A stretch of 64,000 nucleotides of DNA from Sulfolobales archaeon HS-7. GTDB lineage: Archaea > Thermoproteota > Thermoprotei_A > Sulfolobales > Sulfolobaceae. Shown piece by piece: positions 3,088 to 53,859 of this stretch. The stretch is from contig AP024596.1 in the NCBI GenBank assembly GCA_019704295.1, forward strand, positions 256,001 to 320,000, written 5' to 3'. The notes below the pieces were generated by a model. The model saw only the letters and a list, made by a program, of their open reading frames with translations. It had not been told where the DNA came from and made no database searches. Every line of letters begins with the position of its first letter. The first letter of the stretch is position 1. The position numbers and the translations under genes are program-made.

Positions 3088-3130
3088 TAAATGCGTTCTT
3101 ATGGACTACAAATAAAGCTTTTTATAGTCA

Positions 3131-4375
3131 GCGCCGTTCACGTGTTCATTGCGAATCGTAATATTCTTTGTTAAATTAGAATAGTTCAACATGTAATAAT
3201 TCAAATACATGTAAAATAGTAGGAGAATAAGAATAACTGTAATATTATTATAAATATAAGAAGATAGATTGGGATGTTATACCTGAGGATAATTCATCAT
3301 GTGGTTTGTAAAATCCTCTACGGGGAGTGAGACAGGCAGAAATACCTCCACTTTACGAGGGAGTTGAAGGACTCAACGGGATTGTTGTTATTAAGTCACT
3401 CTTACACCTCTCTCAGGACGAAAAGGCGCTACATACTTCACCCCTAATACGGCTGTGCGAATAGCGAGTTCAGAACAGTACCTGGCTCAACATTGTATTT
3501 CTCCACGTTCTGGCTCTTAGCAAATTTGTAACCGTTAAGACTAAACCGTTTTAGGGACTTGCTACTCTCATCTCTAGTGTTACGTGTTTTCCCTGTGTAA
3601 GGTATTCCAGCACACTGTACTTATCTGTAACCGTTACTTCCCCTTTAGCCGAGGGGGAGGAGCTCGTTTAACTACTCCCTTTCCTCCTTTATTACATGCC
3701 GTTCCTTATAGACAATGCAGTATCACCTCTTAAACCTCATTTTGAAAGCGTGGATGACGTTGTCTAAGGCGATAAAGCCGTCCGCTACAATTAACTCCAC
3801 ATTGTACTTCCTCCAGATGGATACGAGTAAGTCCCAGGCGCTTCTCTTATCCTCTTCTTTAGCGAGTGCTAAATTTAGTATTGCTTCCTCTCAGGAGTTA
3901 CCCTTGCTGCGACCCCCTTTTCTCCTTTAGTCAACTTGACGTATTTTACTTCTGTGATTACCCCTGCTCTAATTTCTCCTTAATTCGCGTCTTGACTCGT
4001 TTGTCTTGCCTATAAAAGACAGGGAGTTTGATGGTGACGTAAAATAGTTCTTAGATCTTTCTACTTCTCCTCATCACGAACACGACCCCCTTGACAAGGT
4101 TAAACCCAGTGTACCCTTCCCTCTACTTGGGACTCATCTCTTCTACTTCCTTAAGGGCTTTCCTCTCGATCTCCTGAACCGATTTGTTTATAATTTCTTT
4201 TTCGTAAGGTAGGATAAACGCAAACGTAATACCGCATTTGATAAGGGACGGCGTTTCGAGTTCTTCTGTGGTATTGTTTTCTGGTCATAACCAATTTAGT
4301 ATTACATTCTACGATTATTTAATTAATTTTAAACTAATAAAATAAAGTGAATTCACAATAAACGTGTGAACATCA
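3131..4375 (-). mobile_element. degraded IS256-family (ISC1250-like) element, copy 1
   Basis: Imperfect TIRs CCGTTCACGTGTTCATTGCGAAT / ATTCACAATAAACGTGTGAAC. Relic motifs VELIVADGFIALDNVI and NNPVESFNSLV (Mutator/IS256 DDE). Collinear with 47519-48713. Confidence 0.75.
3424..3601 (-). mobile_element. 176-bp CT-core element, copy A (inserted in the IS256 relic)
   Basis: Minus strand GAATAC-CT-TACACAGGGAAAACACG...GTAGCGC-CT-TTTCGTC. Absent from the second IS256 copy. Confidence 0.85.
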
Positions 4376-7570: not shown

Positions 7571-7747
7571 AGGCGCTATATGCTTCGCCTCTAACATGAC
7601 TATGGGAACAGCGTGCCCAGGCGGGTACCTAGATCAACGTTGTATTTATTTACGTTCTGGCTCTTGGCAAACTCAGACCTCTTGAAACTGACCATTATAG
7701 GGACTCGCGACCCCTATCCCTAGTATTACGTGTTTTCCTTGTGGAAG
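7571..7747 (-). mobile_element. 176-bp CT-core element, copy B (1-nt deletion)
   Basis: Minus strand GCTAAAT-CT-TCCACAAGGAAAACACG...CATATAGCGC-CT-CTTGAGA. Confidence 0.85.
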
Positions 7748-14730: not shown

Positions 14731-14806
14731 AGGCCTTTCATGTTTCGCCTCTACATGACTATGGGAACAACGTGTCCAGAACGTTACCTACATCAACATC
14801 GCAATG
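14731..14806 (-). mobile_element. 176-bp CT-core element, copy C (partial, right ~75 bp)
   Basis: Minus strand GATGTTGATGTAGGTAACGTTCTGGACACGTTGTTCCCATAGTCATGTAGAGGCGAAACATGAAAGGC-CT. Confidence 0.75.
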
Positions 14807-30699: not shown

Positions 30700-31230
30700 T
30701 TTACTCACCCTTGTGTTCACTTTTCAATTAGTTTGAAACTAATCAATTGATTATGGATTTGCTAATATAGATAGAAAGCAGGAAATAATCCTAGGAAGGA
30801 TTAAACACAACGACCTTTACTGAATGTAGTATTACGCTCCCGGCTCTACCTTTGGAGGAACGTTTTAACGAATTTGTCGTATAAGGAGAAAGGTCCTTAA
30901 GGAGGTCCGAGTTAGGGAACGAGATTAAGAGGAAAGGGTACTTGAGATACAGTTCCCGGGGAAAACACGTAGCGTTAGGGATGACAACGCCGATCCCCTA
31001 CATGGTCTGAAGAGGTTAAAGTCGCCCAAAGGTAAGGACGTCAAGTACTGCGACATTTATGTAGGTATGGTTCCGGATTCACTGTTCCCATAGCTGTGTT
31101 ATGGGTGAAACAGGTAGGGTCTTAGGTAATTTGAGATCGTGATGAAGGGCGGGAGGATGATCTTCAGGCCTTTCTACATGGCCGTGAGGTCACCTGCCTC
31201 GTTTAAGAGGGTAAGAGATCCGAGGCGCGC
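30700..31230 (+). mobile_element. 5' part of a third, strongly decayed IS256-type element
   Basis: Aligns by eye with the reverse complement of ~48300-48713 (e.g. GATGAAGGGCGGGAGGATGATCT vs GACGAAGGGCAGGAGAAAGATCT). Confidence 0.6.
30952..31122 (+). mobile_element. 176-bp CT-core element, copy D (small deletions)
   Basis: GGGGAAAACACGTAG...CTGTTCCCATAGCTGTGTTATGGGTGAAACAGGTAGGGT-CT. Confidence 0.8.
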
Positions 31231-47518: not shown

Positions 47519-48713
47519 GGGTGATTCACGTGTCCATTGTGAATTGTGATATTCCTCGCTAAATTAGAATAGTTCAGCATATAATAACCCAGATATATGT
47601 AAAATAGCGAGAGGAATAGGGATGGCTGTAATATTATTGCAGATGTAAGAAAAGATGTTGAAGTGTTATACGTAATGGCAATAGCTCGCGCGATTTGTAA
47701 AATCCTCCAAGGGGAATAAATAGATCGAAACGCCTCCTCTGCACAAGGGAGTTGAAGGACTCCACGAGGTTGTTACCCTTGAGTCACTCCCGTTCCTGTG
47801 GCGAAGAGATATTCGAGTACACTGTACTTGTCAGCTATAGATTTTCCCTCCTCAGCTGAGGAGCCCGTTCAACTCCTCCCTTCCCCCCCCCCTTTTCATT
47901 CTCCGCCTCTAATTGACTATGCATTATTGCCTCCTAACCCTCATGTTAGAAACGCGGATGACTTTGTACAAGGCAGTGAAGTCATTCGCTACGATCAACT
48001 CCACGTTACACTTCCTCCAGAGGCGAACGAGGAAGCTCCAATAGCTTCTCTTGGCCTTTTCCTTAACGAGTACTACGTCAAGTATTGCCCTCCTTTTCTG
48101 GGGAGTTACCCCTGTTGCGATTAGGAACACTCCCTTTTCCCCATGAGTTGACTTGGTGTTTTTCTTATCTACGTATTTGAAGTTGCTCCTTTCGTTCAGG
48201 TTTGGCATCGGAAGCTAGACGTTCAATTTCCCGCCAATGCACGAATATGAGAAGGAACGTGAGAACTGCCTCGCTCTCTCGCTCTAGTTCCTCCTCCACA
48301 CGCGTCTTGACTCTCTTGTCCTCCTTACACAAGACAGGTAGTTTCATGCTTATGCGTAAAATTTTGTAGATCTTTCTCCTGCCCTTCGTCAAGAGCACGA
48401 AGCTCTTAAGAAAGCGGAAACTAGAGTACCTCTTCTCTTAACCTCCTTTCCCCTAGTTGGGACTTATCTCCTCCGCTTCCTCAAGGGCTTTCCTCTTGAA
48501 CTCCTCGACTGATTTTTTAATAATAGATTCTGTGGAAGCATTTGCGGGACGACCTAGAAAATAATACCATATTCGGTTATACTTGGTAATTCAAGTTATT
48601 CCATGGTATTATTTCCGGCTCATCCCTTATTTAGTATTACTGAACCAGCGATGAATTAGTTGATCTCAAACTAATAAAATATAGTGAATTCATAATAAAT
48701 GGGTGAATGGCCC
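47519..48713 (-). mobile_element. degraded IS256-family (ISC1250-like) element, copy 2
   Basis: TIRs GGGTGATTCACG / GGTGAATGGCCC; fragmented transposase (ORFs 47924..48208, 48165..48398); possible decayed TSD GTGTGACTAC/ATTTGACTAG. Confidence 0.8.
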
Positions 48714-51249: not shown

Positions 51250-51850
51250 GAAAGCGAGTGGGTAAGTGTTGATCCGAATCGCTTCTGCAAGGGACTCCTC
51301 GCAGGAGACAGGTGTTTATATCGATTTCTGCCGCGAGAGATTAAGCGAGGGTATTGGAGGGAAAGCTAGAAAATTCGCTTCGGAGGATCTCGAGAGGCGA
51401 ATAGATGGTAAATCGTGTGAATTACCAGAAGAGGGGTTTTACAGGAAGGATAAACGCACGTAATGCGAGAAAGTTGAGCCGGTTGAGCCACTCTGGGTTG
51501 AGCGAATGTTGCTAAGCTCGTCATAAACAAGTCGTCTCAAGAGAAAACAACAGCCGCGATTTTTATAACTTGAGGATTTACGCTCTATTCCCAATTCAAG
51601 GCGCTATATGCTTCACCTCTAACACGGCTATGGGAAAGGGAAGTCTAGTACTGTATCTAAATCAACGTTTTATTTCTTAACGTTTTTGCTCTTTGCAAAC
51701 ATGCACTTCTTAAGACAGAACCATTGTAAGGCCTCGCTATTCTCATCTCTAACATTACATGTTTTTTGTGGAAGTGTCACCCAAGCGAGTTAAGCCTGGA
51801 AATTCGCTGGGTTCAAGAGGATGGAATCCGCTTCTGAGTAATCTCTCGTC
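51250..51850 (+). pseudogene. possible highly decayed tnpB fragment, interrupted by copy E
   Basis: Relic WVSVDPN (RuvC-I-like) and LEDL (RuvC-II-like, ~51569). Confidence 0.35.
51599..51774 (-). mobile_element. 176-bp CT-core element, copy E (2-nt deletion)
   Basis: Minus strand GGTGACA-CT-TCCACAAAAAACATG...GAGGTGAAGCATATAGCGC-CT-TGAATTG. Confidence 0.85.
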
Positions 51851-53285: not shown

Positions 53286-53859
53286 TTAATATTGAATGAA
53301 CAATAAATGTAATTCACCTTATAAACTAAATTTTTATTGAATAGAGTATCGCAGAACATAATTGGAGGGGTAATACTTAAGCGGGATTACGCGTAGGTTA
53401 TATTTTGGTCATGATTTAATATCACGTAATACTCCAGCAGGACTTAGGTCGGAAGAGTAAATATCTTTTGTAAGGAATTTCTAAGTGAGTTAAAGGATGT
53501 ATTTAGCAGGGATTTCAAGAGCCTCAAGTTTTCCAAGTACAAACCTTTGACTTTCTCCCACGGGGAAAACGCGTACCACTAATGATGAATACAGCAAGTC
53601 CCTACAATGGTTAAGTCTAAAGAGATCCAAGTTGGTCAAGGCTAAGAACGTCAAGGATTACGAGGTGGACGTAAGTAGCATTTTGAATTCGCTGTTCCCA
53701 TAACTGTGTTAGAGGCAAAGCATATAATGCATCGAAAATTTCGAAATTATCCTCAGATATATTCAATAAATTAATTGAATAAATTTAATTCTAGATAAAC
53801 GTGTTTTATAACTTTTAGTTTATTTAGTTATTCACATTAATTACACATTGAAAATTGTC
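53286..53859 (+). mobile_element. GACA-type MITE/IS relic carrying nested copy F
   Basis: Right end ATTAATTACACATTGAAAATTGTC matches the family; left end degenerate (CAATAAATGT...AAACTAAATTTTT). Confidence 0.55.
53555..53732 (+). mobile_element. 176-bp CT-core element, copy F (circular ORF intact)
   Basis: CT-CCCACGGGGAAAACGCGT...TTCCCATAACTGTGTTAGAGGCAAAGCATATAATGC-AT. Confidence 0.85.

Follow-up and report, generated by a model that had tools for sequence, protein, structure and literature searches.

A short element without terminal inverted repeats in a Sulfolobales archaeon is very probably a non-autonomous deletion derivative of an IS110-family insertion sequence, inserted at CT and moved in trans

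A degraded pseudogene in Sulfolobales archaeon HS-7 is interrupted by a short insert that carries no recombinase gene. The locus lies in a 64,000-nt stretch of contig AP024596.1 (forward strand, 256,001 to 320,000; called the window below, with positions counted from its first nucleotide). What is this insert, and by what means did it enter its site? An earlier note, made from the sequence alone, had described a precise insertion at a CT core without terminal inverted repeats, and had proposed that the element was mobilized in trans by an IS110-like or other conservative recombinase. We find that the insert is very probably a non-autonomous, double-deletion derivative of an IS110-family insertion sequence (IS), inserted at CT and moved in trans.

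The insert, called copy A of the mini-element here, is 178 bp in length with both CT dinucleotides, or 176 bp plus one core. Its recombinase-sense strand is the minus strand of the window, along which a GAATAC flank, CT, the element, CT, and TTTCGTC follow each other, letter for letter as the earlier note had given them; on the plus strand, the same interval starts AG-GCGCTAC and finishes GTGTA-AG. The uninterrupted counterpart of the site, GGCGAAGAGATATTC, is located in a second copy of the host repeat, where it had been placed previously. Once the element and one AG/CT are taken out, the two host copies are colinear and gap-free at the junction, and the minus-strand reading DKYSVLEYLF occurs in both, in agreement with the claim that removal of 176 bp restores the frame (YSVLEYLF). 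The host had been called IS256. The relic and its paralogue are real, while the assignment to the IS256 (Mutator) family is weak, as the PF00872 match, tested on copy 2, falls below the cut-off (E = 0.007). A scan for sigma-70 promoters and terminators around copy A, which is ill-suited to archaea, and a scan for tRNAs found nothing, and no Rfam family matched within the window. The IS256-like copies are pseudogenes that are 65–75% identical, and many other repeat families also host mini-element insertions; the genome, a closed single contig with a marker completeness of just 91%, resembles a graveyard of mobile elements.

A search of the whole genome (2.15 Mb, one contig, 39.6% G+C) by BLAST and two rounds of nhmmer yielded 58–67 matching segments. 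Mapping and pairing of ends gave 43 complete members, among which 32 are ~175 bp, eight are ~120 bp, and three are full-length copies of 1383–1431 bp. Six members or fragments occur in the window; these are the copies A to F of the earlier note, which are real and have the boundary letters reported there. CT enrichment at both boundaries, which that note had posed as a test, holds genome-wide: on the recombinase-sense strand, 36 of the 43 complete copies have C and 42 have T at the left boundary, and at the right boundary C is found in 41 of them and T in all 43. The ends read CT-TCCACGGGG and GTAGCGC-CT, and no inverted repeats are visible at the termini in the alignment of copies. The short copies are old, as their pairwise identity is 68–80% and their tree has long terminal branches. 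The ~120-bp variant (n = 8) lacks roughly positions 77–124 of the 178-bp form (plus orientation of copy A) and retains both ends, narrowing the right-end requirement in cis to ~75 nt. With copy A as the query, the mini-element was not found in 46 other genomes of the same taxonomic family; the 47 family genomes searched hold no second member of the genus of the source genome.

Coordinates of the mini-element, its segments, its host site, and related copies (window positions unless marked as genome)
Feature	Position	Strand	Basis or remark
Mini-element copy A, including both CT cores	3424..3601	minus	alignment of 32-47 copies and filled/empty comparison
Copy A, left-end junction core CT (plus strand AG)	3600..3601	minus	
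Copy A, right-end junction core CT (plus strand AG)	3424..3425	minus	
Copy A, left-end segment, first ~36 nt of the parent IS	3566..3601	minus	IS 1-36; coordinates +/- 1-2 nt
Copy A, Ser-region segment (GNSES codons), 12-13 nt, IS 1098-1109	3554..3565	minus	12/12 match and reading frame
Copy A, right-end segment, last ~130 nt of the parent IS	3424..3553	minus	alignment and tblastn of recombinase C-terminus
IS256-like (Mutator-family) relic copy 1, one flank of the insert	3125..3423	minus	paralogue matches
IS256-like relic copy 1, other flank of the insert	3602..4372	minus	paralogue matches
IS256-like relic copy 2, uninterrupted at the homologous position	47525..48707	minus	paralogue matches and weak PF00872
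Empty paralogous site, GGCGAAG-AG-ATATTC on the plus strand	47800..47814		
Copy B, 177 bp	7571..7747	minus	CT at both ends
Partial copy, right-end-derived part only	14731..14805	minus	right CT kept
Copy D, 171 bp	30952..31122	plus	GT at left junction, CT at right
Copy E, 176 bp	51599..51774	minus	CT at both ends
Copy F, 178 bp	53555..53732	plus	CT at left junction, AT at right
Full-length parent IS copies	genome 637677-639059, 1085678-1087108, 1262315-1263697		all outside the window
~120-bp variant copies	genome 95847, 203411, 980019, 1198723, 1405962, 1649679, 1665184, 1783150		all outside the window

Because many insertions sit in other repeat families, paralogous empty sites are available for comparison. 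Empty paralogues were found for at least six independent insertions, in a set that comprises the IS copies at genome positions 1085678 and 637677, the mini-elements at 95847, 980019, 895745, and 1783150, and copy A. Each reads flank-AG-flank with one AG (CT in the recombinase sense), and none of the comparisons has a target-site duplication longer than CT. The longer, variable duplications that would speak against the earlier reading were thus not seen, and the alignment and the filled/empty pairs agree with precise insertion at a CT core. A single CT in the empty site is the signature of strand exchange at a shared core dinucleotide, and the arrangement is that of the IS110 family, with one core in the empty site and one on each side of the insert, and with neither terminal inverted repeats nor multi-bp variable target duplications. 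Classical MITEs have terminal inverted repeats and direct target-site duplications of the DDE type, neither of which is present here; the mini-element is MITE-like solely as a short, multicopy, non-autonomous deletion derivative. A 9-bp direct repeat at the IS copy at 1085678 was rejected, as the empty paralogues hold both segments contiguously, with one CT between the flanks.

In the three full-length copies, the two ends of the mini-element enclose another ~1.2 kb, and each copy has different flanks. Their minus-strand frames (relative to the plus orientation of copy A) contain the recombinase pieces IMEATG, KTDKLDAQ, and RTKQSGNSES. The recombinase gene is broken by frameshifts in all three, and the copy at 1085678 alone among them matches both PF01548 and PF02371. 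Genome-wide Pfam searches detected no intact IS110 recombinase; beyond this copy, there is one borderline 42-amino acid Transposase_20 remnant with an internal stop (genome 740566–740676). These matches lie outside the window, which itself contains no IS110 recombinase gene, as noted earlier. A relative of the parent IS in another genome of the same taxonomic family (G007) has an intact gene of 386 amino acids, 68% identical over the C-terminal part, and its protein matches PF01548, PF02371, and the solved IS621 transposase (E = 1e-19), with the EATG, KTDKLDA, and QSG motifs aligned. The parent IS, and not the mini-element, accordingly encodes the DEDD/RuvC-like domain (PF01548) and the Transposase_20 domain with its catalytic Ser (PF02371). 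A search for related loci with a single protein returned just two partial matches, both in a Sulfolobaceae MAG, and Rfam returned nothing meaningful on the full-length elements (chance-level leuA-Halobacteria matches only). When the ends of the mini-element were compared with IS110 donor ends in the same genome, as the earlier note had advised, they matched the three decayed IS110-family copies. The ends are IS110-family ends, which is in keeping with the IS110-like recombinase proposed earlier, and the alternative of some other conservative recombinase was dropped.

How the short form relates to the parent was seen by aligning the consensus of the long mini-element to the IS at genome 1085678–1087108, in the recombinase sense. 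The consensus corresponds to IS positions 1–36, followed by 1098–1109 (12/12 identical), and then by 1301–1431. The left-end segment starts CT-TCCACGGGGAAAA in the family consensus and CT-TACACAGGGAAA in copy A. The right-end segment contains the last ~33 recombinase codons, the position of the stop codon, and the 30-nt right end; ~130 nt of this portion are kept in the long form and ~75 nt in the short variant. One frame of the consensus still spells DSES followed by LQWFSLKRSKLPKSKNVKEYNVDVGTVLDSLFP and a stop, that is, ~4 codons of the Ser motif fused to the final ~33 codons of the recombinase and its stop, and mini-element copies were recovered by tblastn with the recombinase C-terminus. 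On this alignment, the mini-element is a double internal deletion of the parent IS. The ~175-bp copies are all colinear, have no large indels, and appear to share identical deletion junctions. A subterminal inverted repeat was also observed in the mini-element consensus and in a related locus (L029:1468–1530 and 2935–2950): the left-end tip (CCTACGGGG or CCCACGGGGG) is inverted ~35 nt inside the right end (CCCCGTAGG), and this inverted copy overlaps the last recombinase codons and the stop and resembles the right-donor-guide segment of the RNA described below.

The part of the parent IS that precedes the gene was studied in relatives of the parent clade, gathered from genomes G007, G018, G024, G053, G054, G055, G058, and G059. 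The ~290-nt left end upstream of the recombinase gene has two modules, each running from a stem through an internal loop, a GGGG-N-CCCC hairpin, and another internal loop to a stem, and the left-end RNA of G007 is predicted to fold into two modules (-44.2 kcal/mol, z = -3.05). Across 15 sequences, 94.8% of the stem positions are paired, and because these nearly invariant stems hardly vary, covariation in them is weak (2 covarying pairs). An alternative from RNAalifold, in which the G-runs pair with the C-runs, was set aside against the two-module structure. Structural support comes from the single-sequence fold, together with stems that are invariant and loops that are hypervariable. Downstream of the recombinase stop codon there are only 30 nt. 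The IS1111 subgroup has its guide RNA in a long end downstream of the gene; as the RNA modules are upstream here, the predicted layout is IS110-type and not IS1111-type.

The first-module loops vary between copies; the two IS variants of the source genome are 88% identical overall but have 5/12 and 4/8 loop positions in common. The 5' loop matches the left flank together with CT, and the 3' loop matches CT together with the right flank in reverse complement. This 3' loop ends in A and is followed by the G of the stem, and A and G together complement the CT core; in a fixed register, right-flank positions +1 to +5 find their reverse complement in the five nucleotides before the core complement. 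We compared loops and flanks in 19 distinct element/flank combinations from nine Sulfolobaceae genomes. The 3' loop matched its own right flank at a mean of 4.1 of 5 positions, versus 1.5 of 5 for flanks from other genomes, and the longest exact match of the 5' loop to its own left flank had a mean of 5.3 nt (maximum 9), versus 3.3 nt in mismatched pairs. In one G054 copy, the 5' loop matches the left flank at 9 of 10 positions, and the guide match CTTCAAGGC in the loops of IS110 copies was borne out by the tests here. Judged by sequence, this loop-flank matching is bridge-RNA behavior. The string AAACGAGAGG (9–10 nt), which is located in the third-hairpin loop of the left-end RNA, recurs at +8 of the right flank of the IS at 1085678 (L024:1700–1760, minus). 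It is conserved in other IS copies, whose flanks are without it, and its recurrence is probably a coincidence.

In the second module, the donor guide GTAGGAG corresponds in reverse complement to CT+CCTAC, with which the left end begins, and a compensatory change is found in G007, where the donor guide GTGGGAGG is paired with the left end CCTCCCAC. A left donor guide was sought in the second module of the parent-clade RNA, and none was identified. The 5' loop of this module (ATCTAACA in most relatives, missing in several) is complementary to a subterminal TGTTAGA in the right end; it differs in this from the IS621 left donor guide, which is identical to the terminal donor sequence. Covarying loops, by which bridge RNAs are recognized, are thus found in the parent clade's target-binding loop and in its right donor guide, and the mini-element is without the region. 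In the source genome itself, 5 nt are deleted from the right-donor-guide region of all three full-length copies. None of the 5' loops of these copies fits its own left flank, and their 3' loops match their own right flanks at 5/5, 3/5, and 0/5 positions, with no match at 1262315. Given the frameshifted genes, the deletion in the donor guide, and the left guide that no longer fits its own flank, the IS family looks extinct in the source genome, and mobilization cannot be current because no intact recombinase was detected in the genome.

The mini-element has lost the left-end segment in which the bridge-RNA loops of the parent clade reside, and this accounts for the failure of the earlier reader to find convincing target-matching guides in the copies. 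A scan of interior columns against flank positions, for identity or complementarity, reached 23/39 at the top, versus a mean permutation maximum of 23.1, and the longest exact matches between flank and interior were 5.77 nt in the same copy and 5.86 nt in other copies. Both results are at the null, and no interior column covaries with the flank in the element-flank check that the earlier note had suggested. A target logo over all genomic copies, suggested in the same place, has Y at +1 and a preference for G/A at +5 in the right flank, and is nearly uninformative on the left. Pairwise similarity of targets is similarly lopsided (right side 1.95/6 versus a background of 1.56/6; left side 1.66/6 versus 1.59/6). 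The right flanks of the mini-elements comprise more than 30 different 5-mers. TGAAG, the right flank predicted by the surviving IS at 1085678, is matched at 4/5 or better in 7 of 39 mini-element right flanks, compared with 2% of random genomic CT sites (binomial 1.2e-5, for copies that are not fully independent). The two surviving guide variants cannot account for this diversity of targets. The pattern fits guides acting in trans with mainly right-side specificity, or many guide variants over time, neither of which it proves. The former option is plausible because half-matched substrates are reported to suffice for part of the off-target insertion by IS621 (bioRxiv 10.64898/2026.08.31.748434), and right-side-only insertion, if true, would be the natural counterpart of this 'half-match' insertion.

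The most probable course of events can be put together from these observations. The parent is an IS of ~1.4 kb that encodes a DEDD (RuvC-like) and serine recombinase and has a ~290-nt left end upstream, in which the first-module loops, judged by intact relatives, are laid out as the target-binding loop of a bridge RNA. The mini-element keeps the donor ends only, having neither the recombinase gene nor the guide loops. It may have been circularized or excised and then inserted via strand exchange at the CT core, with both recombinase and bridge RNA provided in trans by full-length copies. The IS110 family has a circular (or single-strand circular) intermediate in which the right and left ends abut. 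Supply in trans is suggested by the anatomy, since the mini-elements carry no flank-matching guides, and agrees with the mobilization in trans proposed earlier.

Short copies might instead have spread passively, inside other repeats or segmental duplications, or have arisen by independent deletions of full-length insertions in situ. Many copies do lie within other repeat families, two identical copies (849370 and 886648) have one flank identical over the 14 nt shown, and those at 1246389, 1911260, and 1995910 have one similar flank in common. However, at least six insertions occur at different positions of different repeat families, many other members of which are empty at the exact site, so that the short form, or the IS from which it derives, inserted independently in each. 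That every short copy lies with its flanks in a duplicated block does not hold for copy A or for those at 95847, 980019, 895745, and 1783150. Repeated deletion in situ is at odds with the colinearity and the seemingly common junctions of the ~175-bp copies, which point to one origin. We therefore regard passive spread or in-situ deletion as improbable. Still less probable is it that each mini-element sets its own target through a small guide RNA of its own, of the bridge or seek type. There are precedents for the retention of RNA in such elements, as MITEPpu9 of P. putida carries an sRNA gene (PMC12288879) and a 341-bp transposase-less element in G007 keeps the whole bridge-RNA region, but in the mini-element the deletion map removes the whole loop region, and neither the column scan nor the exact matches rise above the null.

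Hardly credible, finally, is a hairpin-ended derivative of the IS200/IS605 type (PATE), or a family of structured noncoding RNA genes, in place of an IS110 derivative. Such an origin would be in line with the lack of inverted repeats and of a long duplication, with the mere 68–80% identity of the copies, and with a potential terminal hairpin at the right end (AGGCG, 10 nt, CGCCT). Covariation in this hairpin is not significant, however (79.5% paired versus 77.8% in shuffles, p = 0.08), no Rfam family matches, and both ends as well as the internal codons map to the IS110-family element. CT is, moreover, repeated on both sides of the element, and IS200/IS605 elements are not known to leave such a duplication; PATEs have the ends of a TnpA(Y1)/TnpB element and insert 3' of a short motif without duplicating it. 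A non-autonomous IS110 derivative moved in trans remains the preferred explanation.

Whether the ~40 mini-elements amount to a natural split bridge system in an archaeon, in which a bare donor received recombinase and guide RNA all in trans, is a more doubtful matter; we consider it possible, with the balance tilted somewhat against it. The bare donor would, on the same tentative footing, comprise at most 36 nt of left end and at most ~75 nt of right end. If this split arrangement did exist, then the spread of target sequences, in which a common signal is confined to right-flank positions +1 to +5, would mean either that the extinct autonomous copies had a large and fast-changing repertoire of target loops, or that a right-side match alone sufficed.

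Mechanistically, the mini-element is ordinary for IS110 and follows known chemistry; it is a fossil. The IS621 and IS110 bridge elements (Durrant et al. 2024, PMC11208160; Hiraizumi et al. 2024, PMC11208158) likewise have a DEDD and Ser recombinase, to which the G007 protein of the parent clade is related as given above. As in IS621, there are no inverted repeats, a CT core is found on either side of the insert, and upstream of its gene the parent has a non-coding left end that contains two internal-loop modules. The left guide of IS621 is the top strand of left flank plus core, and its right guide complements core plus right flank (PMC11208160, PMC11208158), as do the 5' and 3' loops of the parent clade, respectively. 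The IS621 'handshake' (PMC11208158) also has a counterpart, in that GC after the core complement complements the last two donor nucleotides before the core. In contrast to IS621, the element in the window has neither a recombinase nor guide loops and its host is an archaeon. The right target guide of the parent clade is ~5 nt plus core, as compared to 2 nt plus core in IS621, and the basal stem overlaps both its core complement and its handshake positions. The parent copies in the source genome are dead, and the IS621 left donor guide has no identified equivalent in the parent clade.

The closest precedent is MITEPpu9 of Pseudomonas putida, related to ISPpu9, which is transposase-less, has IS110-like left and right ends, and presumably relies on the IS transposase, acting in trans, for its movement (PMC12288879); it is the one transposase-less IS110 derivative described in the searchable literature. 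The mini-element is similarly transposase-less with the ends of an IS110-family IS. MITEPpu9, however, is a bacterial element with eight copies and an expressed small-RNA gene, ssr9 (PMC12288879), whereas the mini-element has no RNA module, is a simple double deletion in which some recombinase codons are left, and occurs as ~40 old copies (68–80% identical) in an archaeon. Small IS110 elements without a 5' UTR have been noted in a preprint, in which the bridge RNA is suggested to act in trans. The Sulfolobus MITEs SM1–SM4 and SMN1 (Redder et al. 2001, cited in PMC3718332) have, according to the latter account, terminal inverted repeats and direct-repeat duplications, and depend on the DDE-type IS elements ISC1733 and ISC1058. 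They too are short, non-autonomous Sulfolobaceae elements reliant on an IS-encoded enzyme, and differ from the mini-element, which is IS110-derived and has no inverted repeats or direct-repeat duplication.

No report of an archaeal IS110-derived mini-element was found in the searchable literature, and the family thus extends IS110-derived non-autonomous elements to archaea. Bridge recombinases are under development as programmable genome-writing tools, which makes natural evidence on requirements in cis useful: the mini-element suggests that a minimal donor of ~36 nt of left end and at most 75–130 nt of right end was moved to many sites without a guide of its own. For an archaeal bridge-RNA clade, the guide positions are defined by the 19 element/flank combinations from nine genomes of the Sulfolobaceae. 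For annotation, the family accounts for a dispersed repeat without terminal inverted repeats, of a kind that MITE finders based on inverted repeats may miss.

Several further observations were made on relatives and on single copies. G054 contains a related IS in 16 copies, which do not differ in their recombinase genes or in their guide loops (L044, L052, L061, L065, L068, and L071). The loops agree with the flanks of copies in two unrelated contexts: on the right, TGTAG fits CTACAAG, and on the left, the flank and the 5' loop fit in two registers that differ slightly. The IS looks like an active archaeal bridge-RNA element. There is no burst of mini-elements in G054, where right-end copies (17) are about as numerous as full-length copies (16).

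The 341-bp transposase-less element of G007 (L074:847–1192, minus) belongs to the same IS clade and, like the mini-element, has left and right ends and no recombinase gene. Unlike the mini-element, it keeps the complete two-module RNA in addition to a short right end, and has a 5' loop (AGGACACT) that fits the left flank of the element itself. Its site lies within a further copy of the recombinase gene, in the C-terminal part, and it may be regarded as a candidate for a "guide-only" type of non-autonomous element. Among the mini-elements outside the window, the identical copies at 849370–849544 and 886648–886822 have one flank that is identical for at least 14 nt and another that diverges, which looks like a segmental duplication or a rearrangement with a breakpoint adjoining the element. 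The copies at 1246389, 1911260, and 1995910, also outside the window, have similar right flanks (CTACG..GTCTTG, with a palindromic stretch) and different left flanks, reflecting either repeated insertion at the end of one repeat or a repeat that targets the end of the mini-element.
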